Part shown: positions 2,814-20,318 of the stretch, piece after piece | Position numbering within the stretch: position 1 is the first letter of the stretch | Layout: every line of letters starts with the position of its first letter | DNA from: Ochrobactrum teleogrylli | GTDB lineage: Bacteria; Pseudomonadota; Alphaproteobacteria; Rhizobiales; Rhizobiaceae | DNA: 24,000 bases | Assembly (NCBI RefSeq): GCF_006376685.1 | Contig: NZ_VEWL01000001.1 | Coordinates: 351,869 to 375,868, forward strand | Direction: 5' to 3' | The notes under the pieces: generated by a model | Seen by the model: the letters and a program-made list of their open reading frames with translations, nothing else | Told to the model about the DNA's origin: nothing | Databases searched by the model: none | Position numbers and translations under genes: made by a program

Positions 2814-2825
2814 TTTGGCCCAATT

Positions 2826-2950: not shown

Positions 2951-2974
2951 ATTAGAATTATTCTGAATTCTGAA
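2951..2974. promoter_or_regulatory. ICE/Irr-box-like site ATTAGAA-TTA-TTCTGAA followed by a tandem TTCTGAA
   Basis: 12 of 14 match to the Iron Control Element consensus TTTAGAA-N3-TTCTAAA. The right half-site is directly duplicated (TTCTGAATTCTGAA, 2961-2974). It lies just upstream of a possible -35 TTGCGC, about 90 nt upstream of the receptor start. Confidence 0.4.
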
Positions 2975-3064
2975 CTTGCGCAACAATAAAAAATAATCGC
3001 TATAGCCGCTGCTTTGATGGGCTGCGGACAGTAGCCGTTTTGCAGGAACGGCAGGAGAACAGAG

Positions 3065-5269: not shown

Positions 5270-6129
5270 TGAGTTTCTCACGACGTGAATTTTTTGTGGG
5301 GGCGGCTTTGGCCGCCCTTATGTCTTCTGTTCGGGCCGAGACGCCGCGTAAGGTTGTCACGCTCGAATGGGCGGAAACGGAAATTGCTTTGTCGCTCGGC
5401 ATTCGCCCTCTGGGCGTTGCCGATCTGGCGGGCTATCGCCAGTGGGTCAATATCGAGAATGACGGGCTTGCCGATGCGGCCGATGTGGGTGGACGGCAGC
5501 AGCCGAGCCTTGAAGCGCTAACACGGCTGAAACCAGACCTGATCCTCACATCGGCGTTGCGCCATAAGGCGATTGCCGATCGCCTCAAGGCGATTGCACC
5601 GACGGTGCTGCTCGACGGCGCATCCGATAGCGCCGATCTCTTGCAGAATATGAAATCAAATCTTGCTGTTGCCGCAAGTGCTCTGCAATGCGAGGCGGAA
5701 GGCAGGGCCGCGTGGCAATCTTTCGAATACGGCCTGTCGGCAGCGCGGGCGAAACTATCCGGCCCATTGCCTGTCGTGATTGCACAGCCTTTGCCCGGTG
5801 TGGCGCGATTGAGAATATTCACGACCAATTCTGCCGTGATGAAAACGATGGTGCAAGCTGGCTTCTCGGAAGCAGTCGACCGCGGCGTGCAGCCCTTTGG
5901 TTTTACGACATTCGGGTTGGAAGAGCTTGCCACGCTAGCGCCGGAGACACGGCTTTGCCTGTTGGATGATGCGACGCCGAAGGAACTGACGGAAAGCGCA
6001 ATCTGGCCGGTCCTGCCTGTGGTCAGCGCTGGTCATATTTATCATCTCGGAGGCGATATTTGGCCTTTTGGCTCGACACGCTCCATGACGCGGCTGGTTG
6101 AGCGGACGTTAGCGGCGTTAACTGCCTGA
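5263..6129 (+). CDS. Periplasmic iron-siderophore ABC substrate-binding protein (FhuD/FecB-like) with a Tat-type signal
   Basis: I chose the start ATG at 5263 (MVVSFSRREFFVGAALAALMSSVRA|ETP, twin-arginine motif). It overlaps the receptor stop (ATGGTAG). PRKVVTLEWAETEIALSLGIRPLGVAD and KPDLILTS are typical of cluster-8 siderophore-binding proteins. Confidence 0.8.
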   Translation: MVVSFSRREFFVGAALAALMSSVRAETPRKVVTLEWAETEIALSLGIRPLGVADLAGYRQWVNIENDGLADAADVGGRQQPSLEALTRLKPDLILTSALRHKAIADRLKAIAPTVLLDGASDSADLLQNMKSNLAVAASALQCEAEGRAAWQSFEYGLSAARAKLSGPLPVVIAQPLPGVARLRIFTTNSAVMKTMVQAGFSEAVDRGVQPFGFTTFGLEELATLAPETRLCLLDDATPKELTESAIWPVLPVVSAGHIYHLGGDIWPFGSTRSMTRLVERTLAALTA

Positions 6130-6138
6130 CATATGAGA

Positions 6139-6163
6139 AAAGCCCCGGTTGAACCGGGGCTTT
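6139..6163. terminator. Bidirectional rho-independent terminator between convergent genes
   Basis: AAAGCCCCGG-ttgaa-CCGGGGCTTT perfect 10-bp stem. T-run on the plus strand (TTTGTTGTTT) and A-run on the other side. It lies between the binding-protein stop (6129) and the acoC-like stop (6170). Confidence 0.7.
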
Positions 6164-6169: not shown

Positions 6170-7531
6170 TCAGGCAACGGCGCGGATGCATTCGCCAAGA
6201 ATACGCAGTACTTCGGCGCGTTCCTCGATTTGCGGCATATGTCCGCAACGCTGGAAGATATGCACGCCGACTTTTCCGGGCAGCCCATGGGCGTGGCTGA
6301 CGGGAATGATCCGATCTTCCGCACCGAAGATCAGCCGCACAGGGATCGGCAATCCGGCTATGGTTGACCGCAGATCGAAGGTCTGCGTGCCATCGGTGAA
6401 GAACCGTTCCGCAATCGCGCTTTGCGCGGCGCGCAATTCGGTATCAGCGGCTTGGGCAACCGTGGCATTGATGAAAGGCCGCGTGAGCAGGCTTTCGTCG
6501 CTGACCAGCAGTTTCAGCCAAGGGATGATGCTCGCTTCGCTTTTGGCGGCGATCAGGCCCTTGGTGAAGGCGCCGTTGATTTCAGGGCCGAGACCGGCGG
6601 ACGAAATCAGCACCAGCGAGCGCACATCCACGATGCCGCGTGCGGCAACGGTCGCCGCAACGCCACCACCAAAGGAATGACCGCCAAGCACGCAGGCGTT
6701 CACGCCAACGGCGGCAAGTGTGGCTTCAACGGCCTCGGCGATCACATCGACGCTCTCCGGCACCGTGCGCGTGGAAGCACCGTGTCCGGGAAGGTCAAGC
6801 GCCAGAACCGGATGGCCGAGTGTTGCCCCTGCGAACAGGCCGCGCCATGAATTGAGGTCGGCGGCGAAACCGTGAATTAGGACAACAGGCAGTTTTCCGG
6901 CTTCACCCTCACGCAGCCAGACTGCATTGAGCGGTGCAGCGGAACCGGCGGTAGGTCTTCGTGCGGGGGGTGCAACCGGTTGGCTTACAGCGCCAGCCGC
7001 AACCGCAGCTTGGGCAGAGCCAATCTTCGCCTCGACATCCTTTTTCTGGACGCGTCCCTTGGGGCCGGAACCTGCAATCGCCTCAAGATCGATGCCAGCC
7101 TCCCGGGCCAGCCGGCGTGCAAGCGGCGTTGCACGCACGGCTGTGTCCTGAGCGGTAGCAGCTTGGGAGGTAGAAACGACCGGTTCGACAGGTGGGGGGC
7201 CATCCTCCCGAACCGGTACTGGCGCGCTCTGCGAGGGAGCAGGCTGCGCATCGGCGGGGCGCTCAACGGATGGTGGTGCTTTGCGCTCTTCGCCTTCTTC
7301 GTAAATCCACGCGACAGCCTGACCGACTGGCACAACAGTGCCCTCGGCGGCGCTCACATCTGCAAGAATGCCGCTGGCCGGTGCGTCCACTTCCATGGCC
7401 GCCTTGTCGGTTTCGATTTCGAACAGGAGCTGACCCTTCGTGACGGTATCGCCATCCTTGGCATACCAGCGCGAAATCTGGCCGGTCTCCATATCCATGT
7501 CGACTTTCGGCAGGATGACTTCCACTGCCAT
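6170..7531 (-). CDS. acoC: AcoC-type E2 component: lipoyl domain, E3-binding (PSBD) domain and alpha/beta-hydrolase domain
   Basis: Lipoyl domain [55 protein letters not shown]. The C-terminus is not a 2-oxoacid acyltransferase domain. It is an alpha/beta hydrolase ([13 protein letters not shown], nucleophile elbow GHSFGG, C-terminal GHMPQ), as in AcoC of acetoin dehydrogenase systems. Confidence 0.85.
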
Positions 7532-7533
7532 GG

Positions 7534-8532
7534 TCAGCGCACTCCCCTGGCAAGATCGCGGGCGCTTTTGAGAATGTCCGGCACCTGCGGCACGGTCGCG
7601 CGTTCAAGATCGGGATTGTAAGGGATCGGCGTCTCGGCGCCGCCAAGGCGGACAATCGGGGCGTCGAGATAATCGAAAGCATCGCTTTCGGCGACGATTG
7701 CAGAGATTTCCGCGCCGATGCCGAGTGTTTTCACAGCTTCATAGACGCAAAGCAGCTTCGAGGTTTTCTTGACGCTTCTGATGATCGTGTCGCGATCAAT
7801 TGGGCGCACGGTGCGCAGATCGATGACTTCGACGTCGATGCCTTCCTTGGCCAGTTCTGCCGCCGCATCCAGCGCCTTGTGCACCATAATTGCGGTCGCG
7901 ACGATGGTGAGATCACGGCCCTCGCGCACCACATCGGCCTTGCCGATGGGAACGGTATAATAGCCTTCCGGCACTGGCCCCTTCATCTTGTAGAGCAGCT
8001 TGTGCTCAAAAATCATCACCGGGTCGGGGTCTTCGACGGCTGCAAGCAACATGCCCTTGGCGTCATGCGGGGTGGAAGGCTGCAGGACCTTCAGGCCGGG
8101 CACATGGCCGAGCCAGGCTTCAAGGCTCTGGCTGTGCTGTGCGGCGGCGCCCGTGCCGGAACCGGCAGGAAAGCGCATGACCAGCGGCACCGAAACCGCG
8201 CCACCCAGCATATAGCGGATTTTTGCGGCCTGATTGACGATCTGCTCCATGGCGAGCGCAGCAAAATCGGAAAACTGGAATTCGAAAATCGGGCGCATGC
8301 CGGTCAGCGCTGCACCGACGGCGACGCCCGCACCGCCCAGTTCAGAAATCGGCGTGTCCATGACGCGGTCTTCGCCGAAGCGATGCACGAGATCGCCGGT
8401 TACCTGAAACGCGCCGCCATAGACGCCGATGTCCTCGCCCATCAGGAAAACACGGTCGTCGCGCTCCATGGCAATCGCCATGGCTTCCTGAATGGCTTGC
8501 GAATAGCTCAACTCGCGGATGGTGGTGTCCAT
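7534..8532 (-). CDS. acoB: Thiamine-diphosphate-dependent dehydrogenase E1 beta subunit (AcoB-like)
   Basis: 332 aa. Transketolase-like pyrimidine-binding and C-terminal domains ([31 protein letters not shown]). A 2-nt gap to both neighbours indicates an operon. Confidence 0.9.
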
Positions 8533-8534
8533 GA

Positions 8535-9569
8535 TCAGATTTCGTCCGTATATACGTCGCGGGTCAGATTGGTGAGGTCGGGAGAAGGGCTGTTGCGGGC
8601 ATACTCAATCGCGTCGGCGATTTCCTTCTCGACATTGGCCCGGATGGCTTCGATCTCGTTGTCGTCGATCACGCCATAAGCCTTCAGATCGGCCTCGAAA
8701 TGCGCGATGGGGTCGCGATTATTGGCCCAATCCTCGATCTCTTCCTTGGTGCGATAACGGTTGCGGTCGCTCTTGGAATGACCGCGAAGGCGATAGGTCT
8801 TGTTCTCGATCAGCGACGGGCCTTCCCCGCGCCGCGCACGCTCCACGGCCTCGTTGATGGCTTCGGCAACGTCGGAAAGGTTGTTGCCGTCCACGACCTT
8901 GCCGGGCATAGCATAGGCCGATGCGCGGTCCGCGACATTCACCACCGCCGTTGAACGCTTGGTTGAAGTAGACATGCCGTAGCCATTGTTTTCGCAAACG
9001 AAAACGACCGGCAACTTCCAGACGGAAGCCATGTTGAGCGCTTCATGGAAAGCGCCTTCATTGTTGGCGCCATCGCCGAAGAAGGACACAACAACCTTGT
9101 TGCTCTTCTGCTTCTTGGCGGAAAGCGCAGCACCCACTGCAATCGGAATGCCACCGCCGACAATGCCATTTGCGCCGAGATTGCCTTTGGATACATCAGC
9201 AATGTGCATGGAGCCGCCGCGACCCTTGCAATAGCCGGTTTCCTTGCCGAAGAACTCGGCAAACATGCGCTTCACATCGGCACCCTTGGCGATGCAATGA
9301 CCATGGCCGCGATGGGTAGAGGTGATCATGTCATCTTCGGTCAAAGGCAGGCAGGAACCCATGGCGCTTGCTTCCTGTCCGATGGACAGGTGCATCGTGC
9401 CGTGAATAAACCCCCGCGTGTAACTTTCTTCCGCGCCTTCTTCGAAGCGGCGGATGAGATACATCTTGTGCAGCGCTTCCTTCAGCTGTTCGGGAGAATA
9501 GGTGCGGAAAGCGAAGGGCAGGTTGTGGCGATCTGCGGCCTGCGCGTCAATCTTTCTGGCCTGAACCAT
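8535..9569 (-). CDS. acoA: Thiamine-diphosphate-dependent dehydrogenase E1 alpha subunit (AcoA-like)
   Basis: 344 aa. ThDP motif [43 protein letters not shown]. Immediately downstream of the COG4091 oxidoreductase gene. Confidence 0.9.
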
Positions 9570-9580
9570 GGTGCGGCTCC

Positions 9581-10900
9581 TTATGCTCCGTAAACGAGCT
9601 TGTCCTGGCGGGCGCGCAGTTCGGCGATCTTCGATCCCGGCGCGACGGCAGCATTGTCATAGGTGATGAGTTCGCCCTTCCTGATCGGCTTTGTCACGCT
9701 GCCGCCCTGAAGAAGACCGCAGGGGATGGCATGCGCTGTACGCGCTTCGCCAGACGTCATGATCCAGGCGCGGTAGCAATATTCGCCAATGGCATCGAGC
9801 TTTTCGCCCGGCTGCATATCCTTCTTGGCCACAGCGCAGACTTCGGCCACCGGCTTTGCCAGGGGCACCATGTCCGGCTTGCCGTAAAGCACGACACGGG
9901 CGCAGGTGAGGGGAACTTCGAGCGAGGTCAGGTGATAAGGGCGGTGGAAGGTGAAGTAAGGGCCTTTGCCCATTTTCAGATCTTCCATGCGTTCCGAAAC
10001 ACGCGGATGCGACATGTCGGCCACAACGAAGACGCCGGGCGCAACACCCTTGCCGATGGAGTAATCCACGACGCCGACTTTCGAAAGCACACCGCCGTCC
10101 TTTTCAGGAATCAGCGTCTTGTTGAGCTGGTCGAGCGTTGCGGCAGGGCCGTGCATGCCCGGCTTGTCCGGCACCAGACCCGTGGCATTGGCGATGGCTG
10201 CCATTTCCACCATGGTCTTGGAGCCATCGACGAACTCCACCAGCATACGCACATTCATGTTGCGGCGTTTGGCTTCTTCCAGATAATCGTCGGGAATGGC
10301 GTCGATATTGAGCGGGTTGTTCTTGCCCTTGCCAGCGGCAACGATGGGATGCCCCATGGCTGAAACGAACTCGATCAGTTCCATGCAGGACGATGGTTCG
10401 TCGCCGGCACCCAGCGAATAGGTGACGCCCAGACGGTCGGCTTCTGCCTTGAGGTAGGCACCGATGGTGACATCGGCTTCGACATTCATCATGACGAGAT
10501 GCTTGCCATGTTCCATGGCGCGCAGGCCGATTTCCGCGCCGACAGCCGGAACGCCGGTGGCGTCGATGACCACATCGATCAAATCATTTTCGAGGATCAG
10601 ACTGGCATTGTCCGTAACGGCGACCTTGCCGCCTTCCATGGCGGAGGTCAGGTCGGAAGCGTTTGAAACTTGCCTGCCGTGGCCTTCTTCCTGATAGGCG
10701 ATATCAACCGCTTTCAAAGCGTTCGGAACACGCAGTTCGGAAATGGCGCCGATTTCGATGCCGGGCATATGCGCCACGCGGGTCACGATGTCGGTGCCCA
10801 TTTCGCCGGAGCCGATCAGCCCGATACGGATCGGCCGTCCGCTGTCAGCACGCGCTTGCATATCACGTGCCAAGCCCGTCAACGCCACATTCGTCGCCAT
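9581..10900 (-). CDS. NAD(P)-dependent oxidoreductase of the COG4091 / homoserine-dehydrogenase-like plus SAF-domain family (DRL/DXR-II-type), 439 aa
   Basis: Rossmann motif IRIGLIGSGEMGTD near the N-terminus. GAGDEPSSCMELIEF and GKGKNNP motifs. A C-terminal SAF-like beta-clip (AVAKKDMQPGEKLD..., KPIRKGELITYDN). AGGAGG RBS. First gene of the operon. Its size and architecture match the family that contains Brucella abortus DRL. Orthology is not verified. Confidence 0.8.
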   Translation of the reverse strand: MATNVALTGLARDMQARADSGRPIRIGLIGSGEMGTDIVTRVAHMPGIEIGAISELRVPNALKAVDIAYQEEGHGRQVSNASDLTSAMEGGKVAVTDNASLILENDLIDVVIDATGVPAVGAEIGLRAMEHGKHLVMMNVEADVTIGAYLKAEADRLGVTYSLGAGDEPSSCMELIEFVSAMGHPIVAAGKGKNNPLNIDAIPDDYLEEAKRRNMNVRMLVEFVDGSKTMVEMAAIANATGLVPDKPGMHGPAATLDQLNKTLIPEKDGGVLSKVGVVDYSIGKGVAPGVFVVADMSHPRVSERMEDLKMGKGPYFTFHRPYHLTSLEVPLTCARVVLYGKPDMVPLAKPVAEVCAVAKKDMQPGEKLDAIGEYCYRAWIMTSGEARTAHAIPCGLLQGGSVTKPIRKGELITYDNAAVAPGSKIAELRARQDKLVYGA

Positions 10901-10958
10901 CTTTTCCTCCTGATGTTCCTCCAGACGCCTTCGCGCCTCTCTTCCCTTACCCGATAAT

Positions 10959-10970
10959 GAACATTTGTTT
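10959..10970 (-). promoter_or_regulatory. Shared operator-like motif, copy 1 (reads AAACAAATGTTC toward the DRL-like/aco operon)
   Basis: Exact 12-mer GAACATTTGTTT on the plus strand, 58 nt upstream of the start at 10900. In the minus orientation it sits 3 nt downstream of a -35-like TTGACT (10979-10974). The same 12-mer recurs at 11066-11077 and 20306-20317. Confidence 0.6.
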
Positions 10971-11064
10971 CCAAGTCAATACGAGTGTACATTTATCACG
11001 CGCCCCAGACCTGTTATTCCTTACCGTGCTTTATCGCTTGTGAACAAACATTGGTCTGCTATAA

Positions 11065-11079
11065 AAAACAAATGTTCTG
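11065..11079 (+). promoter_or_regulatory. Shared operator-like motif, copy 2 (AAAACAAATGTTCTG toward the gat-type PTS operon)
   Basis: This 15-mer is the exact reverse complement of 20304-20318. It lies 118 nt upstream of the IIC start at 11198. It forms an inverted pair with copy 1, about 107 bp centre to centre, in the divergent intergenic region. Confidence 0.6.
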
Positions 11080-11197
11080 CCCGGTGTTTCAAAATGCAAC
11101 ACAACAAAATCTTGTGGGGGCATGCGGCGCGGAACTTGATACAAGCGTTCAAACGGCCTGGCATTCGTTGGAGGATGGCCGGGGGGAGGAGAAAACT

Positions 11198-12607
11198 ATG
11201 GACGCATTTCTAAGCGGCCTGAAATCGGCCATCGATACATTGGGAGCGACGGTCCTGCTCCCTATCGTCATTTTCATTATAGCCGTGGTTCTTGGCGCTA
11301 AGGTGGGCAAAGCCTTCCGCGCTGCCGTGACCATCGGCGTCGCCTTCATCGGTATCAACCTCGTATTGGGGCTGATGTTCACCTCCATTGGCGAGGTGGC
11401 TCAGGCGATTGTTACCAATACGGGCATCAAGCGCGATATCGTCGATGTGGGCTGGCCTTCGGCTGCGGCCATCGCTTTCGGTTCGTCCGTGGGGCTTTGG
11501 GTCATTCCGGTCGGCATTCTGGTCAACATCGCGCTGCTTTTGATGCGCTGGACCCGCACGCTCAATGTCGATGTTTGGAACTTCTGGCACTTTGCCTTTG
11601 TCGGCTCGCTTGTCGTCGCCGCAACGGACAATCTCGCCTATGGCATTATCGTTGCAGCTCTTGTTGCGGCTCTGTCGCTGCTGTTCGCTGACTGGTCGGC
11701 ACGCGCCGTACAGCAGTTCTATGGCGTTCCGGGCGTTTCCGTTCCGCATCTGGCATCGGCGCAAATTCTGCCGATTGCCATCGTGCTCAACTGGATCATG
11801 GATCGCATTCCTGGCATCAACAAGATCCACATCAGCACCGAAACCATCGAACGCCGTTTCGGCGTCTTCGGCGAGCCGGTGGTTCTGGGCCTGATTATCG
11901 GTCTCGTGCTTGGTCTCATCGCTTTCTACAATTCAGGCGATTTCGGCCATGTGCTGGCCAAGGTGCTGGGCACCGGCATGACGCTTGCCGCCGTGATGCT
12001 GCTTCTGCCGCGCATGGTCAAAATCCTGATGGAAGGCCTGCTGCCGGTTTCTGATGCCGCACAGGAATTCGTGCGCAAGCGCACCGGCGACCGCGAATTG
12101 CTGGTCGGTCTCGATTCGGCAATCCTGATCGGCCATCCGGCTGCGATCTCGTCGTCGCTGATCCTCGTGCCGATTGCGATCATCCTGTCGGTGATACTGC
12201 CGGGCAACCGCGTCATCCTGTTTGCCGATCTTGCGGTTATTCCGTTCATCGTCGCCATGACTGCGCCGCTGTTGAAGGGCAACGTGTTCCGCATGGTTGT
12301 CGTCGGCACGGTGACGCTCGCCATCGGCTTCTATGTGGCCAATGCGCTGGCTCCGCTCTTCACGAGCGCTGCCGTGTCATCTGGCTTCAAGTTGCCGGAA
12401 AACGCGTTGCAGATCACTTCGGTGGTCGACGGCTTCCTGTGGGTGCCTTATGTCATCATCGCCGCAATCCAGTGGTTAGGCGTTGTTGGAATCGCAGTTC
12501 TTGCAGTCGTCATCGCCGCAGCGTTCATTCTCTATCGTCGCAACACCGACGGTTGGGAACGCGCTGCCGGTGCGGAAGACGAACCAGCCGAGCAGAACAA
12601 CTGGTAA
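11198..12607 (+). CDS. PTS galactitol-family EIIC permease (GatC-like), 469 aa
   Basis: I chose the start ATG at 11198 (GGAGGA RBS 7 nt upstream). MDAFLSGLKSAIDTLGATVLLPIVIFI..., VDVGWP, NVDVWNFWHF, FGEPVVLG and GLDSAILIGHPA are collinear with E. coli GatC as I recall it. Multiple TM segments. The upstream 71 codons of the track ORF lack any RBS or homology. Confidence 0.88.
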   Translation: MDAFLSGLKSAIDTLGATVLLPIVIFIIAVVLGAKVGKAFRAAVTIGVAFIGINLVLGLMFTSIGEVAQAIVTNTGIKRDIVDVGWPSAAAIAFGSSVGLWVIPVGILVNIALLLMRWTRTLNVDVWNFWHFAFVGSLVVAATDNLAYGIIVAALVAALSLLFADWSARAVQQFYGVPGVSVPHLASAQILPIAIVLNWIMDRIPGINKIHISTETIERRFGVFGEPVVLGLIIGLVLGLIAFYNSGDFGHVLAKVLGTGMTLAAVMLLLPRMVKILMEGLLPVSDAAQEFVRKRTGDRELLVGLDSAILIGHPAAISSSLILVPIAIILSVILPGNRVILFADLAVIPFIVAMTAPLLKGNVFRMVVVGTVTLAIGFYVANALAPLFTSAAVSSGFKLPENALQITSVVDGFLWVPYVIIAAIQWLGVVGIAVLAVVIAAAFILYRRNTDGWERAAGAEDEPAEQNNW

Positions 12608-12670
12608 GGCGCAAAAGCAATATTGGCCGCATACCGGAGAGGTATGCGGCTATCTGCAATGGAGGATGGA

Positions 12671-13132
12671 ATGGCGAACGGCCTGACGGCTTTTCTCGAC
12701 CCTGAAGCGATTGAGCTGCAGAGCGAGGCCAAAACCAATGAGGAAATTATCCGTATTCTGGCGGCGAAGCTGGAACGGCTCGGCTATGTAAAGCCCAGCT
12801 ATGCGGATGCGGTCGTGAAGCGGGAACAGACCATGCCAACCGGTCTGCCGCTGGAGCGCGAAGAAAACGTTGCCGTTCCGCATACCGACCCCGAGCATGT
12901 CCTGAAAGCGGGCATCGCTTTTGCGACGCTGAAAACCCCCGTCATCTTCGCCAATATGGAAGATCCGGAAGAGGACGTTCCCGTCGGATTTGTCTTCCTG
13001 CTTGCCATCAATGACAAGGACAAACAGATCGAGACCTTGCAACAGGTGATGGCGACCATTCAAAATGAGGACGCGCTCGAGAATCTCAAGAAATCGCGCA
13101 CATTGAGTGACGTGGAAGCTGCGCTCGGTTAA
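12671..13132 (+). CDS. PTS EIIA component, type 2 (GatA/mannitol-fructose family)
   Basis: About 153 aa from the ATG at 12671 (GGAGG 5 nt upstream). Candidate phosphorylatable His in NVAVPHTDPEHV. Length and layout are like GatA. The start is ambiguous (alternatives 12623, 12644, 12659). Confidence 0.8.
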   Translation: MANGLTAFLDPEAIELQSEAKTNEEIIRILAAKLERLGYVKPSYADAVVKREQTMPTGLPLEREENVAVPHTDPEHVLKAGIAFATLKTPVIFANMEDPEEDVPVGFVFLLAINDKDKQIETLQQVMATIQNEDALENLKKSRTLSDVEAALG

Positions 13133-13146
13133 TCGGAGGAAACAAA

Positions 13147-13434
13147 ATGGCCAAAATGAAAACGATTCTCTTTGCCTGCGGCACCGGCGTCGCAACATCC
13201 ACTGCCGTGAATGCTGCCGTCACCGAAGAGATGAAAAAGCGCGGGCTGACCTTCAACGCCCAGCAGGCCAAGGCGACCGAAGTGCCGTCTCTGGCTGACA
13301 ATGTGGATTTCATCGTTTCCACGACGCCTATTTCCGCCGCAGTCGAGAAGCGGGTCATCAAGGGCCTCGCATTCCTGACCGGCATCGGCAAGGACAAGGT
13401 TCTGGACGAAATCGAAGCCGAATTGCGCAAGTAA
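13147..13434 (+). CDS. PTS EIIB component (GatB-like, Cys-phosphorylated)
   Basis: 95 aa. MAKMKTILFACGTGVATST contains the active-site Cys loop typical of GatB / lactose-family IIB. GGAGGA RBS upstream. Confidence 0.85.
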   Translation: MAKMKTILFACGTGVATSTAVNAAVTEEMKKRGLTFNAQQAKATEVPSLADNVDFIVSTTPISAAVEKRVIKGLAFLTGIGKDKVLDEIEAELRK

Positions 13435-13450
13435 TTTCGGCCCATTTCAA

Positions 13451-13484
13451 AGGGCGCTTTCGTGCAGGATCACGAAAGCGCCCT
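13451..13484. terminator. Bidirectional terminator hairpin between the gat-type operon and the SorC-family gene
   Basis: Perfect 14-bp stem AGGGCGCTTTCGTG-caggat-CACGAAAGCGCCCT, followed by a T-rich tract on the plus strand. It lies between convergent stops at 13434 and 13514. Confidence 0.75.
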
Positions 13485-13513
13485 AACTATTTGTATTCTC
13501 ACTACTGAGCGGT

Positions 13514-14548
13514 TCAGTTCGGAACGGAATGTCCGATGCGCCGGAGCATTTCGGCGGCACTTTCCTCGTCGGTGATGAACACCGTTGGACGCAGAAGTTT
13601 CATCGCGCCGAGAAGCGCTTCGATCTTTTCCTTGCCGCCGGATGTCAGGATGCGTTGCGGCGTGTTCTGCAAGCTTTCGATGCTGGCCGACATGACGCGC
13701 TCATGCACCGGATCATCGACGATACGGCCATCGGCATTGTAGAAATGGAACAGAACGTCGCCGACCGCACCATTGGCGCGCAGCGATTGTTTCTGCTCTT
13801 CATCGACGAGCCCCACGCGGTAGGACGTGCTGCTGGCGGTCTCGATGCCACCAATGCTGAGCAACACCATGTCGAGATCTTCCGCCATGTCCAGCACTGT
13901 GTTCAGGCCACAACGTTCAATCAGGGCTGTGCGAGTCTCCTTGCTGTCCACGAGGGCGGGCGCGGGGATAAGGTAGCCTTCGCCTTGCAGCATCTGCGCG
14001 AATTGCCAGGCAAATTCGGGCGGGTTGGAGCGTCGTGGCTGCACAATGCCGCCGAGAAGCGAAATGACCTTAAGATCGTTCACCGGACGCGAGCCGATAT
14101 GCTGCAAGGTGCTGGATAAAGTGCGGCCCCAGCCGACACCAATGCGCATGCCGTGCTGGATTTTTTCCGACAGATAAGCGCCGGTCGCAGCACTTATCGG
14201 AGGAATCGGATCGGTCTCGGCAGAGGAGAGGGGCGCGACAATGGCCTGTTCCAGCCTGAACGCCTTTTCAAGCGCCGCTTCCAGCGCGGTCAAAGCCGAA
14301 AGCTTACCTTCAATGGTGATCTTCACCTCGTTGCGGGCGCGGGCATCGGCAAGAAGACGCACAATGGTCACGCGGCCAACACCCAGCGCATCGGCAATAT
14401 CGCTCTGGGTCATCTGCTCGACATAATACATCCACGCCGCACGGGTTCTGAGGCGGCTGGTGCGGTTTTCCGCTGCAACGCCTTCGGAGCCCACCAGAAG
14501 GTCGTTGGTTTCAGCTGCGTTCCGTTTCCCCTTGGCGGTCTTTCTCAA
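13514..14548 (-). CDS. SorC/DeoR-type sugar-binding transcriptional regulator
   Basis: HTH region RAAWMYYVEQMTQSDIADALGVGRVTIVRLLADAR, followed by a SorC sugar-phosphate-binding domain (IGVGWGRTL, VISLLGG, VLLSIGG, GDVLFHFYN). TTG start at 14548 (GGGGA upstream). The start is uncertain. Confidence 0.85.
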   Translation of the reverse strand: MRKTAKGKRNAAETNDLLVGSEGVAAENRTSRLRTRAAWMYYVEQMTQSDIADALGVGRVTIVRLLADARARNEVKITIEGKLSALTALEAALEKAFRLEQAIVAPLSSAETDPIPPISAATGAYLSEKIQHGMRIGVGWGRTLSSTLQHIGSRPVNDLKVISLLGGIVQPRRSNPPEFAWQFAQMLQGEGYLIPAPALVDSKETRTALIERCGLNTVLDMAEDLDMVLLSIGGIETASSTSYRVGLVDEEQKQSLRANGAVGDVLFHFYNADGRIVDDPVHERVMSASIESLQNTPQRILTSGGKEKIEALLGAMKLLRPTVFITDEESAAEMLRRIGHSVPN

Positions 14549-14684
14549 ATCGATTCCCCAAAATTCTTGCAGTTTGCGTCTTTGTGATATGGACCCTATT
14601 GCTTTTCCGGGACGAGGAAAACAATACTTCTTTTGTATCGGTTAAGATACGATTGTTGGCCTCGCTAGGAGGAAGAGATCGATC

Positions 14685-15422
14685 ATGCTGCGCACACTTT
14701 CCGATGAAATCGCCGTCAATCTGAAAGACCGTCTGCGTGACGTGCGTTACGTGATCAGACGCGCCCGGCAAAGTTCGCGTGCGCCCGAAACCAGCCTGCC
14801 CGCACCGGAAGCGCTTCTGGGCCATGCCGCAGGCGTGATGGATACGGCGCTGACCGCCGCCGAGGCGATCTCAATCTCGATTATTTCGTCTGAACCGGCC
14901 AAACATCATGGCGCGCCACAGATGCGCAGCCTATCCTTTTATTTCGGCACCGGTGCGGAAGGTGCGCGCGGTTTCCGCAGCGATATGTATTATTTCCTCA
15001 AGGGAACGATGCGGCGCTACGGACTTGAAAACGCACTTATCCACGAAGCGGCTTTTTCGGTCATCCACGGGCGTCTGTTGCGCAAGCACGCGGAACTTCT
15101 GCGCGATCCTCGAAAGGTTGCACAGGCGCTGGCCGCGCTTTATCTGGAATATCTGGCTGAAAGCCCTGTCCGCTTGACGTCGTTGGAAGTCTCGTGCGAC
15201 CCGGAAAATCTGCGCAAGGCGGAAGTGGTCGGGCTTGCCGCTACTTGCCTCGCTTGCGGGCTGGCGACCGTAAAGCCTGCCGATCTCGCCGATATCGATC
15301 CGCTGGAAAGCGTGTTTATGGTGCTGGAAGCACGCTATGAACGGCTGGTGGATGCGGCAGAGACCCGCGACGCGAAGAAGCTCGAAACCCTCTTCGCGAC
15401 GCTGATTGCCCACCTACCTTAA
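14685..15422 (+). CDS. Hypothetical protein (245 aa), no family recognised
   Basis: ATG with AGGAGG upstream. Codon usage looks native. Mostly helical, with no TM segment or signal peptide seen. It is divergent from the SorC-family gene. Its 3' end overlaps the HPr-EI gene 3' end by 9 nt. Confidence 0.55.
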   Translation: MLRTLSDEIAVNLKDRLRDVRYVIRRARQSSRAPETSLPAPEALLGHAAGVMDTALTAAEAISISIISSEPAKHHGAPQMRSLSFYFGTGAEGARGFRSDMYYFLKGTMRRYGLENALIHEAAFSVIHGRLLRKHAELLRDPRKVAQALAALYLEYLAESPVRLTSLEVSCDPENLRKAEVVGLAATCLACGLATVKPADLADIDPLESVFMVLEARYERLVDAAETRDAKKLETLFATLIAHLP

Positions 15423-17414
15423 GTCGCCAAACAGATCGGCGATGATCTTCTTGGCGCGGGGAATGGAAGCCGGGCTCATGCTGAGCTCGGTCAGTCCCAT
15501 GCGGATAAATTCCGGGATCAAATCCGGCTTGCCTGCCGCTTCTCCGCACATGCCGACCATGATGCCCGCTGTCGTGGCTGCTTTCGCGGTCATTTCAATG
15601 GCCGCCATTACAGCTGGATGATGCACGTCGTTGAGCCTCGCGACCGTCGGGTTGAGACGGTCTGCCGCCATGACATATTGCGTCAGATCATTGGTGCCGA
15701 TGGAGAAGAAGGCGGATTCCTTGGCCAGCTGATCGGCTGCGAAAACCGCTGCCGGTGTTTCGATCATAACACCCAGTTCAAACGTGCCGTAAGGCTTGCC
15801 TTCTGCTGTCAACTCGCGCTCGCATTCGGCAATCAGGCTTTTTGTCGCCCGGATCTCCTCGATATCGGAAACCATCGGCAACATGACCTTCAGTTTGCCG
15901 TGCACTGAGGCGCGAAGCAGGGCGCGCAATTGCGGCTTAAACACCTCCGGGCGGTCAAGGCACATGCGGATGCCGCGCCAGCCGAGGAACGGGTTTTCCT
16001 CCTCGGGAAACTCGATGCCGGCGACGGGCTTGTCACCGCCGATATCGAGTGTGCGGACAATGACAGACTGGGGGGCGAAAGCGCGCAGAAGTGATGCATA
16101 GGTTTCCATCTGCATGTCTTCGGACGGCAAATGGATATGCTTCATGAACAGAAGCTCGGTGCGGAACAGGCCGACGCCCATCGCGCCTGCGGTCTGGGCC
16201 GCTTCGATTTCCTCCAAAGCGCCGAGATTGGCCGCAACCTCAATCACCACGCCATCGGCGCGGCGCGGCGTATAGTCACGATACTTGTCCAGCGCACGCT
16301 GTTCTTCCGTGGCCTTGGCAATGCGGCTTTCGATTTCGGCCAGAACGGTGGCATTCGGGTCGTGATGGACAATGCCCGCACTGCCATCGACGGCAACCTG
16401 TCGCGCTGTCTTCAGTCTATGAACAGCGTCGCCAAGTCCAAGCACTGCCGGGATTCCGTGCGTGCGCGCGATGATCGCGACATGCGAGGTCGCGCCGCCA
16501 TGGCCGCAAACCACGCCGCGAATGCGCTTCAGCGGTGCGCGGGCCAAGTCCCAAGCGCCGATGTCTTCGGCGATCAGAATGGCACCGTCCGGTAGTCCGT
16601 CGAGATTGAGGTCTTCCTGACCGAGCAAGGCGAGACAAATCTGGCGGCTGATTGCGTGCACATCGTCGGCGCGGGCATTGAGATAGGGATCGTCGAGGTT
16701 GGCGAATTGCTGCGCGACCGTCGAGGCAGCGCCGAGCGTTGCGGAGACCGCATCCATGCCGCCGCGAATAAGGGCGTGTGCTTCGTCCCGCAGGCTGTCG
16801 TCGGAGGCAATATCCTTCAATGCAGCAACGATGCCGCGATCACTTTCGGCGAGATCGTCGCGCGCGAGCGAATGTTCCATCCGCTCTTGAACAGTTGCGA
16901 CAGCGGCCTCGTAACGGCTGATTTCCGGTGCGATTTCGTGAGGTGCCAGCTTGCCGGTGCCGGGCGTGATTTCGGCAGGGAAAAACGGAAATGCCTCGCC
17001 AAGCGAAAGACCTTCACTGGCGGCAACGCCCTTGATCTGGCCTTCCGGCAACGCTGCAATCGCAACACTCGCGACCGGGGCGGTGACGGGAGCAGTCTCC
17101 ACCACCGCGGCAACGGCTGCGCCGTCATTTTCCTCAAGCCCCGCGCGCGGGTTTTCGAGATAGCCGATCAGCGCTTCCAGTGCTTCAATCGCGTCAGCCC
17201 CTTCGGCGCTGACGGTGACTTCGTCATTTTCCTTCACGCCAAGCAGCATGAGCTTAACGGAGCTTTTCGCGCTGACGCTTTTGCCGCTCTTTGCGATCTC
17301 GATATTACACTCGAACCCCTTGGCGAGCTTGACGAAACGAGTGGCGGGGCGCGCATGCAGCCCTTCATGCACCCGGACGATGGTGGAGCGTTCCATTTGA
17401 GAGCCTTGGATCAT
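15414..17414 (-). CDS. Fused HPr - Enzyme I (phosphoenolpyruvate-protein phosphotransferase), 666 aa
   Basis: N-terminal HPr domain (VHEGLHARPATRFV, GKSVSAKSSVKLMLLG). An Ala/Val-rich linker. Then EI with active-site GGATSHVAIIARTHGIPAV and C-terminal PEP-binding motifs FFSIGTNDLTQY and GMCGEAAG. The start is either 17414 or the ATG at 17396. Confidence 0.9.
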   Translation of the reverse strand: MIQGSQMERSTIVRVHEGLHARPATRFVKLAKGFECNIEIAKSGKSVSAKSSVKLMLLGVKENDEVTVSAEGADAIEALEALIGYLENPRAGLEENDGAAVAAVVETAPVTAPVASVAIAALPEGQIKGVAASEGLSLGEAFPFFPAEITPGTGKLAPHEIAPEISRYEAAVATVQERMEHSLARDDLAESDRGIVAALKDIASDDSLRDEAHALIRGGMDAVSATLGAASTVAQQFANLDDPYLNARADDVHAISRQICLALLGQEDLNLDGLPDGAILIAEDIGAWDLARAPLKRIRGVVCGHGGATSHVAIIARTHGIPAVLGLGDAVHRLKTARQVAVDGSAGIVHHDPNATVLAEIESRIAKATEEQRALDKYRDYTPRRADGVVIEVAANLGALEEIEAAQTAGAMGVGLFRTELLFMKHIHLPSEDMQMETYASLLRAFAPQSVIVRTLDIGGDKPVAGIEFPEEENPFLGWRGIRMCLDRPEVFKPQLRALLRASVHGKLKVMLPMVSDIEEIRATKSLIAECERELTAEGKPYGTFELGVMIETPAAVFAADQLAKESAFFSIGTNDLTQYVMAADRLNPTVARLNDVHHPAVMAAIEMTAKAATTAGIMVGMCGEAAGKPDLIPEFIRMGLTELSMSPASIPRAKKIIADLFGDLR

Positions 17415-17429
17415 GAATGCTTCTTGAGA

Positions 17430-17810
17430 TCAGTCGCTGATGACGATCATATGTCCTTCGCGCAGAACGGCAACCAAAGCGGCGCCGTCAACTTCGCTGG
17501 CACAGATTTCGCCCGGACGGTCGGTCGAGTCGGCCCCGGTAAACGATATCACCACATGGCCGATGTCACGCACTTTCTGCCAGGCGCTTGCTCCAACAGC
17601 GGTAATGTTTGCCGTTATGTCGCCAATGGTGATGAGCGCGCCAACCGGCGGCGCAGCTTCCTGCGGACCGTCTTCGACTGCATGCATCACCGAGACTTCC
17701 GCGAGTTCGGGCGGAGAGCCCTCTGCAAACAGGATCAGAACGCCGCCTTCGGCGAGATCAGCCACTTCGGGACCAATTGCGGTGATCCGTGTCTTGAGAT
17801 GTATCGGCAT
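17430..17810 (-). CDS. srlB: PTS glucitol/sorbitol-family EIIA (SrlB-like)
   Basis: MPIHLKTRITAIGPEVADLAEGGVLILFAEGSPPELAEVSVMH... is collinear with E. coli SrlB (MTVIYQTTITRIG...). I chose the ATG at 17810 (AAAGGA RBS) over the GTG at 17834 on the basis of homology. Confidence 0.85.
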   Translation of the reverse strand: MPIHLKTRITAIGPEVADLAEGGVLILFAEGSPPELAEVSVMHAVEDGPQEAAPPVGALITIGDITANITAVGASAWQKVRDIGHVVISFTGADSTDRPGEICASEVDGAALVAVLREGHMIVISD

Positions 17811-17839
17811 GGCGGCAGTCCTTTTCAATTTCACTCAAT

Positions 17840-17876
17840 CGGCATCCTCCAAAAATTGGGGAGATGAGGATGCCGA
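17840..17876 (-). other. Intercistronic stem-loop between srlE and srlB
   Basis: 10-bp perfect arms CGGCATCCTC / GAGGATGCCG with a 17-nt loop, inside the 127-nt srlE-srlB spacer. Confidence 0.35.
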
Positions 17877-17937
17877 AAATTAAAGGCAGAGATTGGGAGG
17901 AGCGGCCCGCCGCTTTGATGCGACGAGCCAGTTTGCG

Positions 17938-18942
17938 TCAAAGCACGGCGAGGCTGACGAGCCAGGCGATGAGCACCGAGACAGGGCCCATGATCTGGCG
18001 GCTGATCAGGATCGCAGGCACGCCGATTTCAATCGTCTTCGGTTTGGCTTCACCGAGCGCCAGACCCACTGGCACGAAGTCGCAACCGACCTGCGTGTTA
18101 TAGGCGAAGAGCGCGGGCAGGGCCATTGCCGGAGCGATGGTGCCATTGGCAATCTGCGGGCCGATAATGGCCACACCCACTACCTGCGCGATGACTGCGC
18201 CCGGTCCAAGGATCGGAGAAAGAAACGGCAAGCCGCAGATAGCCGACAGCACAAGCAGGCCAATGATATTGTTGGCGAGTGGTCCCATCGGCTGGGCAAG
18301 AATATCGCCGATGCCGGTGTAAAGAATGAGACCGATCAGCATCGTCACGAAAGCCATGAATGGCAGAACGTTGCGGATGACCTGATCGATGGTGCGGCGA
18401 CCGGCGTTGAAGAAAATGCCGACGACACGGCCCATGACGCGGCCGATCCGGCTGATCAGCCCGACAAGGCCGCCATCATTCGATGTATCGATTGGCGCTG
18501 CTGGCTTTTCGTCGGCCTTTGGGGCTGCGGCTGCAAAGGACGCGGTGGCGGCAGGAGCCTCGGAGCCATCGGCAGGAACGACATTTTCGGGCTTCACGCC
18601 GGAGACATAAATGTCTTCGGTAATAAACTGCGCAAGCGGGCCGGACTGGCCCACGGGCGTGAGATTGACGGTCGGGATGCGCTTGCGCGGATAGACGCCG
18701 CAACGGGCGGTGCCGCCGCAATCGACCACGACGACAGCCATTTCGCTTTCAATGGGCGGAGCGCGGAAACCGTCTACGGCTTCGCCTCCGGTCATTTCCG
18801 CGATCTGTCTGGCGAGCGGATGGATGCCGCCGCCGGTCACGGATACGATCTTGCTACGCTGTTCGGTGGGCTGGATGACAAGCGGTCCGCCCCAGCCACC
18901 GGAGCCGTGGGAAATTCTAACGGATTTGTAGGTTTTGGCCAT
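17938..18942 (-). CDS. srlE: PTS glucitol/sorbitol-family EIIBC (SrlE-like), 334 aa
   Basis: SHGSGGWGGPL, VVDCGGTARCGVYPRKRIPTVN, SGPLAQFITEDIYVSGVK, ILPFMAFV and LSPILGPGAVIAQV are collinear with E. coli SrlE. GGGAGG RBS. Confidence 0.9.
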   Translation of the reverse strand: MAKTYKSVRISHGSGGWGGPLVIQPTEQRSKIVSVTGGGIHPLARQIAEMTGGEAVDGFRAPPIESEMAVVVVDCGGTARCGVYPRKRIPTVNLTPVGQSGPLAQFITEDIYVSGVKPENVVPADGSEAPAATASFAAAAPKADEKPAAPIDTSNDGGLVGLISRIGRVMGRVVGIFFNAGRRTIDQVIRNVLPFMAFVTMLIGLILYTGIGDILAQPMGPLANNIIGLLVLSAICGLPFLSPILGPGAVIAQVVGVAIIGPQIANGTIAPAMALPALFAYNTQVGCDFVPVGLALGEAKPKTIEIGVPAILISRQIMGPVSVLIAWLVSLAVL

Positions 18943-18960
18943 GATGTCCTCCCGCGCGCC

Positions 18961-19737
18961 TTAAAGCTCGATGCCCTGACGGCGCGCCATGATGGCGGTG
19001 ATGCGTTCGGTGAGCATGCCTTTGAGCAGGATCACGACGAGGCCGACGATGGCGTACCAGATGGCCACATTGATGTGATAGCCATTGGCGACAGCGCCTT
19101 TCTTTTCCAGTTCAAGCAGCGCCACGAGTACGCCACCCCAGACGAAATATTCGCCGGGATTGATATGCGGGAAGAGGCCAAGTGGCGGATGCACATAGGA
19201 CACTGCCGCGTCGTAAAAGGCAGGCTTGTGCTTTTCCTCAAGGAACGAACCGAAGGTATAGGCCATCGGATTGGTCAGGAAGAACACCGACAGCACCGGC
19301 AGAACCGTATAACGGGTTAGCGCGATGCGGCCCGCCCCCTGTGCCAAACCGTGCACGCGCTTTTCGCCGACGAGTTCGGTGATTGCGTAGAAGGCGGTCA
19401 TCAGAACCACCAGGGTCGGAATGATGCCGGTCACGAAACCGGAAAACACTTCGCCACCCTTTTGGAAAATACCGATGAAGTGCTTGCCGATCGAGGCCAG
19501 CCAGCCCAGCTGTTCTTCCTGCGTGACGTTTTGCAGTCGTTCCTTGAACTGATCGACAGTCAGATTGTCCGTGCCGGTTGCCTGTGCAAGTTGCACAAGG
19601 TTATCGCTACCGTGTTCGACGGCTAGCTTGCCGTGAAACACCGCGTCCGTTGCTATGTTGGCGGCCATCTGGCTCGCCACATGCAAGGACTGTAAGGTCG
19701 TATCGGCGCCTTGCGCCAGCATTGCAGCTATAGACAT
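18961..19737 (-). CDS. srlA: PTS glucitol/sorbitol-family EIIC (SrlA-like) with an extra N-terminal region of about 75 aa
   Basis: The C-terminal ~180 aa (FIGIFQKGGEVFSGFVTGIIP..., LFPHINPGEYF) match E. coli SrlA end to end. I chose the start ATG at 19737 with a strong GGAGGAGGAG RBS, the same RBS as gutM. No in-frame ATG lies near the SrlA-homologous start. Confidence 0.85.
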   Translation of the reverse strand: MSIAAMLAQGADTTLQSLHVASQMAANIATDAVFHGKLAVEHGSDNLVQLAQATGTDNLTVDQFKERLQNVTQEEQLGWLASIGKHFIGIFQKGGEVFSGFVTGIIPTLVVLMTAFYAITELVGEKRVHGLAQGAGRIALTRYTVLPVLSVFFLTNPMAYTFGSFLEEKHKPAFYDAAVSYVHPPLGLFPHINPGEYFVWGGVLVALLELEKKGAVANGYHINVAIWYAIVGLVVILLKGMLTERITAIMARRQGIEL

Positions 19738-19813
19738 TTCTCCTCCTCCACGCCCGTCCTCGTCGGGCGATACCCCTTGAACATTGCCACCCAGTTCACG
19801 GTTGGACACACGC

Positions 19814-20242
19814 TCAGGCGTGCGCCAGCTTCAGTCCTTCGAGAGACGTGCCGTCGGATTGTTCGCGGATGCGGTCGATCTGGTCCATCGCCTGCTTTGC
19901 GGCAGCATTGACAGGTGACTTTTCGAGCGCTTCCTGTTCACGCCGCAAGGCATTGAGCGGCATGCCCTCATAGGCTTCCTGCCGCTTGAACTTCGCGAAC
20001 ACGGTTCGTCCGCTCATTTCGAGAAAGCGCCGGACCTTCAGGTCGCGGTCAACCACGATCATGACAATGACGCCTTTGCCGAAGCGCCCGCGTACATGGC
20101 CTGCACCCACGAATCCGTCAGAGTAGCGGGATGTGACGCCTTTCAGCACGTCGGAGTAATGGCGCATCTGAAACCAGACGCCCAGCGACTGGACCCCCCA
20201 TAAAAGAGCCAAAGCCAGTAAAGCCCATTGCCAGATAGCCAT
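19814..20242 (-). CDS. gutM: GutM-like glucitol operon activator (142 aa)
   Basis: N-terminal TM helix MAIWQWALLALALLWGV. Then VGAGHVRGRFGKGVIVMIVVD...LEMSGRTVFAKF, which matches the GutM pattern of E. coli (GRSSGRF...VVV...MKGLTVFA). ATG at 20242 with a GGAGGAGGAG RBS. Confidence 0.75.
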   Translation of the reverse strand: MAIWQWALLALALLWGVQSLGVWFQMRHYSDVLKGVTSRYSDGFVGAGHVRGRFGKGVIVMIVVDRDLKVRRFLEMSGRTVFAKFKRQEAYEGMPLNALRREQEALEKSPVNAAAKQAMDQIDRIREQSDGTSLEGLKLAHA

Positions 20243-20303
20243 TTTCTCCTCCTCCACCGGAGGCTTCGTGCGTCTTTGAGCGCCGCCAGTCTCCGTCTCT
20301 TCA

Positions 20304-20318
20304 CAGAACATTTGTTTT
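20304..20318 (-). promoter_or_regulatory. Shared operator-like motif, copy 3 (reads AAAACAAATGTTCTG toward gutM-srlAEB-HPr/EI)
   Basis: CAGAACATTTGTTTT on the plus strand is the exact reverse complement of 11065-11079. It lies 61 nt upstream of the gutM ATG. In the minus orientation it sits 6 nt downstream of a perfect -35 hexamer TTGACA (20330-20325), so it overlaps the promoter spacer and -10 region. Confidence 0.6.

Follow-up and report, generated by a model that had tools for sequence, protein, structure and literature searches.

We analyzed a window of 24,000 nucleotides from Ochrobactrum teleogrylli (contig NZ_VEWL01000001.1, positions 351,869 to 375,868; coordinates below count from the first letter of this window), in which two phosphotransferase system (PTS) permeases, an oxidoreductase, and a lipoyl-dependent cleavage complex are clustered. 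The block is reasonably likely to be a single regulon that catabolizes 2-C-methyl-D-erythritol (ME) to acetyl coenzyme A (acetyl-CoA) and glyceraldehyde-3-phosphate (GAP). In such a pathway, the Gut-type Enzyme II would import ME and phosphorylate it to ME 4-phosphate (MEP), with a dedicated HPr-Enzyme I as the phosphate donor chain. A type II DXP (1-deoxy-D-xylulose 5-phosphate) reductoisomerase (DXR-II) running backwards would then convert MEP to DXP, probably with NAD+ as the cofactor. An Aco-like E1alpha/E1beta pair would split DXP, which has the form CH3-CO-CHOH-R, between C2 and C3 to release GAP, and the two-carbon unit held as hydroxyethyl-thiamin diphosphate (ThDP) would pass to the lipoyl arm of an AcoC-type E2 and from there to CoA as acetyl-CoA. 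The host dihydrolipoamide dehydrogenase (E3, Lpd) would reoxidize the lipoamide. A SorC-family regulator, probably sensing MEP or DXP, would act with GutM to control three operons at a shared operator, and a Gat-type PTS may provide an accessory second entry for a related substrate.

All of the enzymes required for the conversion of ME to acetyl-CoA and GAP are encoded in the cluster, with the exception of E3. Aco-type E1/E2 complexes cleave acyloins. A Salmonella dxr mutant survives on exogenous ME (PMC3994034), and a 2004 paper by Testa et al., which is cited there, names the sorbitol PTS as an ME transporter in its title. Our full-text search of the literature for ME or DXP catabolism came back without any account of it; the component families are known, but novelty would lie in the pathway logic, the proposed DXP-cleaving complex, and the implied origin of DXR-II. 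The same route had been proposed from the letters of this DNA alone, and it is now supported on comparative grounds by the identity of DXR-II, its conserved linkage, and the shared operator.

The oxidoreductase gene (9581-10900, minus strand) heads the catabolic operon and encodes a DRL_cat domain (PF21135, 228 bits). Its product aligns with the Brucella abortus DXR-like protein (DRL) structures 3UPL and 3UPY over residues 1-435 at approximately 80% identity (phmmer E=3e-218), and K191, K193, T229, H250, R320, and Y322 are all kept in the alignment to 3UPL. The first three of these residues anchor the substrate or fosmidomycin, and the last three are typical of the clade (PMC3847144). The comparison with B. 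abortus DRL, which the original prediction had proposed as a check, thus extends over the full length and spares every listed active-site residue. Judged by its sequence, the window protein is a true DXR-II and not just DRL-like, and DXP-to-MEP reductoisomerase activity would be expected from its family membership. Because it is a bona fide DXR-II, the MEP/DXP route is favored over a route through deoxy-alditols; the two had been put forward as equally consistent.

The window DXR-II is 99% identical to a protein of O. haematophilum and to that of strain CCUG 38531 (locus L006 in our numbering of loci), and 95% identical to proteins of Brucella anthropi and B. intermedia. Two functional DXR-II paralogs are reported for both O. 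anthropi and M. loti, and a dxr mutant is reportedly complemented by either of the O. anthropi paralogs (PMC3847144). In Table S4 of the same study, O. anthropi paralog 1 and Brucella DRL both have a length of 1317 nt, and paralog 2 is 1320 nt long. The window gene, at 1320 nt, matches the latter, and since a neighbor-joining (NJ) tree agrees, it appears to be orthologous to O. anthropi paralog 2. In this tree, the window DXR-II falls inside a large aco-linked clade and groups with B. abortus DRL and the Rhizobiales DXR-II, which places it in the DXR-II clade rather than in DLO1 or DLO2; B. abortus DRL itself clusters with L080, L081, L083, and L085, all of them lone copies from Ochrobactrum. 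Lone DXR-II copies without aco genes are found at several places in the tree (L041, L046-L048, L059, and L080-L085), and Aminobacter aminovorans BE290 (L050 and L053) has a lone DXR-II that is nearly identical to its linked copy. The lone copies suggest that the operon enzyme may have been recruited repeatedly as a stand-alone biosynthetic DXR.

The linked and Brucella-type enzymes also differ at a site that may report on the cofactor. As a rule, a Rossmann fold with an acidic residue at the end of beta2 binds NAD(H), and one with Arg there binds NADP(H). The residue ending beta2, 20 positions after the GxGxxG loop, is Glu or Asp in 72/72 aco-linked DXR-II sequences, distant ones included, and is Glu55 in the window protein (codon at 10736-10738). 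In contrast, Ala-Arg-Arg stands here in B. abortus DRL and in three lone Ochrobactrum copies (L080, L081, and L085), P0241 has Thr-Arg-Arg, and P0242 has Ser-Arg-Arg. These signatures suggest that the aco-linked enzymes use NAD(H) and the Brucella-type enzymes use NADP(H), a split that is expected if the former are catabolic and the latter anabolic. Glu is retained in some lone copies (Aminobacter, L020, L048, L059, and L068), which look like the result of recent duplication of linked ones.

Behind DXR-II and on the same strand lie the genes for a ThDP-dependent E1alpha (8535-9569; E1_dh, E=2.6e-91), an E1beta with Transket_pyr and Transketolase_C domains (7534-8532; 84 to 87% identity across related loci), and an E2 (6170-7531) with lipoyl, E3-binding, and alpha/beta-hydrolase-fold acyltransferase domains and the motifs ETDK43A, PLARRLA, HGF, GHSFGG, and CGHMP. 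A strong hairpin with an 11-bp stem and 7 G-C pairs (6139-6163) bounds the operon at its 3' end. The complex is of the AcoABC type, with ThDP E1alpha and E1beta, no 2-oxo-acid-specific E2 core, and an AcoC-type E2 that scores 433 bits against NF011457 (cut-off, 307). It differs from PdhABC in that E1beta lacks the N-terminal lipoyl domain of PRK11892-type PdhB, its match spanning profile positions 137-460 only, that the E2 C terminus is an alpha/beta hydrolase, and that E1alpha scores 387.6 against TIGR03182, just under the cut-off of 393.85. Among orthologous operons, the E2 C terminus (window 6170-6934) is swapped: 15 loci have an alpha/beta-hydrolase domain (AcoC type), and 32 have a classical 2-oxoacid_dh domain that is chloramphenicol acetyltransferase (CAT)-like. 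The portion of E2 with the lipoyl and E3-binding domains is homologous in all of them, including L001, L002, L003, L005, and L095. We considered a preprint on the Clostridioides difficile acoRABCL genes as a parallel and set it aside, as it has no link to DXR-II.

To assess how widely these genes travel together, we scanned one genome per species and obtained 577 loci with relatives, of which the best 80 were analyzed; 577 + 567 loci were detected overall. E1alpha or E1beta lies beside DXR-II in 64 of the 80 species loci, and in 62 of these 64 E1alpha begins less than 100 nt downstream of DXR-II on the same strand. Among the linked loci with full 10-kb flanks (n=36), 16 carry a Gut PTS, 11 carry PfkB, and 1 carries both, so that at least one is present in 26/36. 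Several of the remaining 10 show a PTS just past the examined flank (L009 and L018; cf. L095). The annotated plasmid loci fall into PTS-type clusters, found in Rhizobium sp. B230/85, Nitratireductor, and Terrarubrum, which hold the window set in shuffled order and often a haloacid dehalogenase (HAD) sugar-phosphatase, and kinase-type clusters, found on pRM41A of S. meliloti Rm41 and on an Agrobacterium pAt plasmid, which hold DXR-II, E1alpha, E1beta, E2, lpdA, lipA, a SorC regulator, an ATP-binding cassette (ABC) transporter, and a PfkB kinase. The PTS and the ABC transporter with its PfkB kinase are thus non-orthologous alternatives. Since a transporter with a separate kinase can stand in for a phosphorylating transporter, there is strong evidence that an imported, phosphorylated carbohydrate is consumed by the operon, in keeping with a substrate that is taken up, phosphorylated, and passed on to DXR-II. 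Additional lpdA and lipA genes are present in L003, L005, L103, and L110.

The linkage extends well beyond close relatives. L095 (Mesorhizobium) and L097 (Terrarubrum) have the same gene set, and L089, L094, L102, L103, L110, L113, L118, and L140 have the same genes mostly on one strand, with DXR-II sequences 39 to 46% identical to that of the window and a G+C content of 0.39 to 0.71 (approximately 0.59 in the window). L089 (G+C, 0.54) and L094 (0.69), with DXR-II 44 to 46% identical, have SrlE-SrlB upstream and E1alpha-E1beta downstream. L103 (G+C, 0.40) is a single-strand operon with the order GatC-SorC-GutM-SrlA-SrlE-SrlB-DXRII-E1alpha-E1beta-E2-Lpd; L113 (0.71) and L118 (0.64) resemble it, and a Gat-type IIC recurs in distant operons. 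A metagenome scan seeded with distant sequences left 80 loci (G+C, 0.27 to 0.71) with a Gut PTS in 24, E1 in 16, and both in 8. Conservation of the gene neighborhood, another check named in the original prediction, is therefore borne out: DXR-II, E1alpha/E1beta-E2, and transport or phosphorylation genes are linked in the Hyphomicrobiales, in Paracoccus, and in unrelated lineages of low and high G+C content. Chance juxtaposition is rejected because the linkage is kept across phyla, and the module appears to be older than the alphaproteobacteria.

The three operons of the window share a regulatory element. The exact 12-mer GAACATTTGTTT occurs three times in the window and not once in 100 dinucleotide-preserving shuffles. 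The first copy (10959-10970) belongs to the operator/promoter element of the DXR-II operon (10955-10983, plus strand), 59 nt 5' of the DXR-II start codon, and reads TTGAC-N-ACAAATGTTCATTA in the direction of the gene. The second copy (11066-11077, minus strand) precedes the Gat PTS operon by 121 nt, counted to the GatC start codon, and the third (20306-20317, plus strand) lies between GutM and the divergent hypB gene, 64 nt 5' of the GutM start codon. All three have the identical orientation relative to the downstream gene. A relaxed motif, GAACA[TA][CTA]TGT, was then scanned in 85 related loci (1.6 Mb, window included) and found 88 times, with 77/88 occurrences at most 350 nt upstream of a cluster gene: DXR-II (46), GutM (19), GatC (6), PfkB (3), the ABC binding protein (2), and hypA (1), counting the window copies. 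It lies 39 to 88 nt 5' of DXR-II in the 46 loci, and upstream of lone DXR-II copies there were no occurrences in the 85-locus scan. In gene orientation, the consensus TTGAC(A)-N-ACAnATGTTCAATA pairs a -35-like hexamer with a conserved box after it. We infer a repressor operator that overlaps the promoter, a layout that is usual for such operators. The claim that the same 12- to 15-mer stands in the same orientation before all three operons is thus upheld by three exact 12-mers and by a conserved operator-like element in relatives, and the operons are predicted to form one regulon.

The presumed repressor at this operator is the SorC-family protein encoded at 13514-14548 on the minus strand, a sugar-phosphate-sensing regulator by its Sugar-bind domain (E=4e-58). 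Its homologs, with 46 to 96% identity, are present in PTS-type and kinase-type loci alike.

The PTS genes occupy the remainder of the block. The Gut operon, on the minus strand, is headed by a GutM activator-like gene (19814-20242; PF06923) and continues with the Gut-family components IIC (SrlA, 18961-19809; PF03608 over residues 105-277), IIBC (SrlE, 17938-18942; PF03612 and PF07663), and IIA (SrlB, 17430-17834; PF03829). The last gene of this operon is that of the fused HPr-Enzyme I (15414-17414, minus strand), with PTS-HPr, PEP-utilisers_N, PEP-utilizers, and PEP-utilizers_C domains and the motifs GLHARPA and TSHVAIIAR. The Gat operon, on the plus strand, encodes a Gat-family IIC (GatC, 11198-12607, the longest open reading frame [ORF] reaching back to 10985; EIIC-GAT, E=2.4e-86), a IIA of the EIIA_2 type (12623-13132; PF00359, E=1.4e-35), and a IIB of the Gat/Lac type (13147-13434; PF02302; 89% identity to the L001 copy). 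A bidirectional terminator-like hairpin with a 14-bp stem and 9 G-C pairs fills the gap between this operon and the regulator gene (13451-13484). The likely true starts are at 11198 for GatC, with a ribosome-binding site (RBS) and an ATG, and at 20242 for GutM, also with an RBS and an ATG; the longest ORFs reach into the promoter regions. The true start of SrlA is probably internal to 18961-19809.

Two all-helical proteins, both conserved in Hyphomicrobiales, complete the system. One, hypA (14685-15422, plus strand; approximately 245 amino acids), has no Pfam or NCBIfam match. It has 77 homologs, and those with a named organism are all from Hyphomicrobiales except for one record, Bacillus sp. 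PR5; it evolves fast, with 16 to 27% identity between genera. The other, hypB (20423-21055, plus strand; approximately 210 amino acids), has 497 homologs, none with a Pfam domain, and is present in 25 aco-linked loci and in 0 lone loci. Their AlphaFold2 models have predicted local distance difference test scores of 79 (hypA) and 73 (hypB), and neither model found a fold match in the PDB. The two genes are an adjacent pair in relatives (L001 5359-6841; L003 4899-6353 and 21064-22342; L005 4643-6188) and are separated in the window.

These gene assignments come from Pfam and NCBIfam profile scans of the window ORFs, which confirmed every gene that the original prediction had listed (Gat PTS, Gut PTS with GutM, fused HPr-Enzyme I, SorC regulator, oxidoreductase, and AcoABC) and agreed with the stated absence of SrlD, GatD, GatYZ, and PfkB from the window. 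The description of the block as self-contained within approximately 14 kb holds for the named genes only. The cluster is not fully self-contained because it has no E3 (Lpd) gene, and hypA and hypB also belong to the system, with hypB outside the 6170-20318 range noted at first.

The strongest alternative keeps the architecture and changes the substrate. In this case, the PTS would deliver the phosphate of, for example, L-fucitol, rhamnitol, a hexitol, or a pentitol, the DRL-family enzyme would be a plain polyol-phosphate dehydrogenase, and E1/E2 would cleave a 1-deoxy-ketose phosphate to acetyl-CoA and an aldose phosphate. We regard this as unlikely, but a point in its favor is a spore-forming Firmicute locus, L120 (6821-11648, on a 1.9-Mb contig), where SorC-DRL-GutM-SrlA-SrlE-SrlB lie beside spoIIGA, sigE, and sigG. 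DRL takes the position of SrlD in the classical gut operon there and in L119, and neither E1/E2 within 17 kb nor SrlD was found in L120; L119 is alike. A role as a plain polyol-phosphate dehydrogenase or in MEP/DXP salvage thus stays viable for such operons. Listeria probably has the layout of L120, with lmo0542-0544 as the sorbitol PTS and a DXR-II that, by accession numbering, is probably lmo0545 or lmo0546. Gat and Gut permeases usually carry hexitols, although the window Gat IIC, IIA, and IIB, which have the family domains, score under the NCBIfam galactitol cut-offs (440 versus 542 for TIGR00827, 61 versus 139, and 39 versus 95, respectively). Any polyol phosphate would also need the phosphate-anchoring residues. 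On the other hand, the window protein shares approximately 80% identity with a DXR whose structure and biochemistry are defined, all listed active-site residues are kept, and Firmicutes and Chloroflexi members complement dxr mutants, as do the O. anthropi paralogs, while the DLO1 and DLO2 relatives do not. To yield acetyl-CoA, the substrate must be a methyl ketone, and among 1-deoxy-ketose phosphates DXP is the common natural one.

Less probable still is a salvage or biosynthetic module, in which imported ME or 1-deoxyxylulose, once phosphorylated and interconverted by DXR-II, would feed isoprenoid synthesis with MEP and thiamin and pyridoxal synthesis with DXP, with E1alpha/E1beta acting like DXP synthase (DXS) or as a minor overflow valve. 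DXR-II is the sole DXR in Brucella, and judging from the layout of Table S3, DXR-I seems to be missing from Ochrobactrum and Mesorhizobium as well. A mutated pyruvate dehydrogenase (PDH) E1 is reported to supply DXP in Escherichia coli (PMC3424233). PTS+DRL operons without E1 exist, as in L120, and the L001 cluster adjoins a thi operon. However, a lipoyl-E2 is always co-transcribed, and together with the added lpdA and lipA genes it argues for oxidative acyl transfer rather than synthesis. Moreover, clusters are located on accessory plasmids and governed by a sugar-type repressor, the NJ tree joins B. abortus DRL to separate lone Ochrobactrum and Brucella copies that bear the NADPH-type signature, and PTS-derived MEP could join the MEP pathway without any DXR-II. 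Finally, it is very improbable that the block is an ordinary acetoin/2,3-butanediol dehydrogenase system merely beside unrelated PTS operons and a DXR-II paralog: E2 does exceed the cut-off of the acetoin dehydrogenase E2 profile NF011457, but the window has no sigma54 AcoR, acoX, or butanediol dehydrogenase (its block regulators being the SorC-family protein and GutM only), the DXR-II link is tight and deeply conserved, the operator is common to both PTS operons, and the linkage persists in relatives where the E2 C-terminal domain is exchanged for the CAT type.

Several points nevertheless weigh against ME catabolism, the reading that we prefer. The equilibrium of DXR favors MEP, and the reverse flux must therefore be pulled by the cleavage step. 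Growth of such bacteria on ME is undocumented in the literature that we searched, and no Aco-type E1 is known to act on DXP. Our PDB search returned only E1 structures of PDH and branched-chain 2-oxo-acid dehydrogenase, with no acetoin E1 for comparison. The domain scans found no E3 (Lpd/AcoL) gene in the window, the pathway leaves hypA and hypB unexplained, and in the PTS+DRL operons that lack E1, such as L120 and L119, DXP would have no dedicated sink.

Comparison with known systems places ME catabolism among familiar parts. It shares GAP, DXP, MEP, the DXR-II family, and ThDP chemistry at the same C2-C3 bond of DXP with the two opening steps of the MEP pathway (DXS and DXR/DRL), but its steps are proposed to be reversed and oxidative, E1alpha/E1beta-lipoyl-E2 would replace DXS, and a transporter and sugar-type regulation are added. 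Acetoin dehydrogenase (AcoA/B/C[/L]) of Cupriavidus necator, Pseudomonas putida, and Bacillus subtilis has the same heteromeric ThDP E1, E2 domain layout, and acyloin-cleavage chemistry; the cluster differs in lacking AcoR/sigma54, acoX, and E3, in the co-transcription with DXR-II and co-regulation with a PTS or kinase, and in its proposed substrate, DXP instead of acetoin. The enterobacterial gut/srl operon has SrlA, SrlE, SrlB, and GutM in common with the cluster and belongs to the PTS family for which ME uptake is documented in Salmonella, at least in the title cited above. In contrast to that operon, the cluster has its own fused HPr-Enzyme I and SorC-family regulator, and SrlD, GutQ, and the DeoR-type SrlR are absent from the window ORFs. 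To our knowledge, alphaproteobacteria normally lack sugar-transporting PTS permeases. The ery operon of Brucella and Rhizobium, with the SorC-family EryD, follows a shared logic in the same order, in which a polyol is phosphorylated and then oxidized under SorC-family control, and the kinase-type loci L003 and L005 also carry an EryB-like glycerol-3-phosphate dehydrogenase homolog nearby. Unlike the ery pathway, the cluster has no isomerase steps to erythrose-4-phosphate and would use a reversed reductoisomerase and ThDP/lipoyl cleavage instead.

The related loci carry further genes. A Zn-dependent dehydrogenase accompanies the EryB-like homolog and a second sugar ABC transporter near the clusters of L003 (2164-4868) and L005 (1847-4604), and also in L037, L040, L056, L075, L078, and L079; these extras of kinase-type and some PTS-type loci hint that additional polyol substrates feed the system. 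The HAD sugar-phosphatase, whose best match is YieH/HxpB-like, is found in many PTS-type clusters (L001 17846-18526, L002 13459-14145, L004 1936-2604, and L095 16168-16842) and not in the window, and it may be a relief valve for MEP or DXP. In L001 (1-4794; Rhizobium sp. B230/85), the cluster adjoins a thiC-thiO-thiS-thiG-thiE-thiD operon, an adjacency that may reflect the role of DXP as a thiamin precursor or may be coincidence. A further DRL branch, 38 to 47% identical (L086-L088 and 18 metagenome loci, e.g., L127, L129, L169, and L173), occurs in the context of an FGGY kinase, a SIS protein, and a Zn-dependent alcohol dehydrogenase and never with a PTS; it may have another role. Assemblies of the Mesorhizobium loci L014, L017, L019, L021, L024, and L042 end approximately 3 to 4 kb downstream of the DXR-II operon, which suggests repeated or mobile sequence there.

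The flanks of the island are of a different nature. To the left (381-6129) are LacI-type and AraC-type regulators, a TonB-dependent receptor (3065-5269), and a Peripla_BP_2 binding protein (5215-6129), a set that looks like siderophore or heme uptake unrelated to the island. To the right (21078-23995, minus strand), an acvB/VirJ-like gene and a gene with a lysyl-phosphatidylglycerol (LPG)-synthase C-terminal domain, an lpiA-like pair, directly adjoin it. Rfam and tRNA scans of the window gave no match, and since a sigma70 and terminator scan of the window was at background overall, only the two long hairpins described above were used.

The distribution of DXR-II has been difficult to interpret. 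Many Firmicutes have it redundantly alongside DXR-I, active DXR-II is also found in Chloroflexus, which relies on the mevalonate pathway, and in Finegoldia, which has neither pathway, and a 2026 review states that no defining pattern has emerged. We tentatively propose, with doubts slightly outweighing our confidence, that DXR-II did not originate as a redundant enzyme of isoprenoid synthesis but is the hallmark of an ME-catabolic module that is widespread and horizontally mobile, and that a duplicated, NADPH-switched copy was later recruited in Brucella, Bartonella, and Ochrobactrum in place of a lost DXR-I. If true, this would explain the patchy distribution of DXR-II, its redundancy with DXR-I, and its presence in the absence of the MEP pathway, and it would be relevant to the design of fosmidomycin-type drugs against Brucella. 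Methylerythritol is a plant product that is also released by bacteria with a stressed MEP pathway and formed from isoprene oxidation, and the cluster would represent the first catabolic route for it. The E1/E2 family would gain a new substrate class, as the lipoyl-dependent cleavage of the sugar phosphate DXP would be an oxidative mirror of DXP synthase. Metabolic engineering could then exploit, or must remove, this drain on DXP and MEP or reversible entry point for ME.

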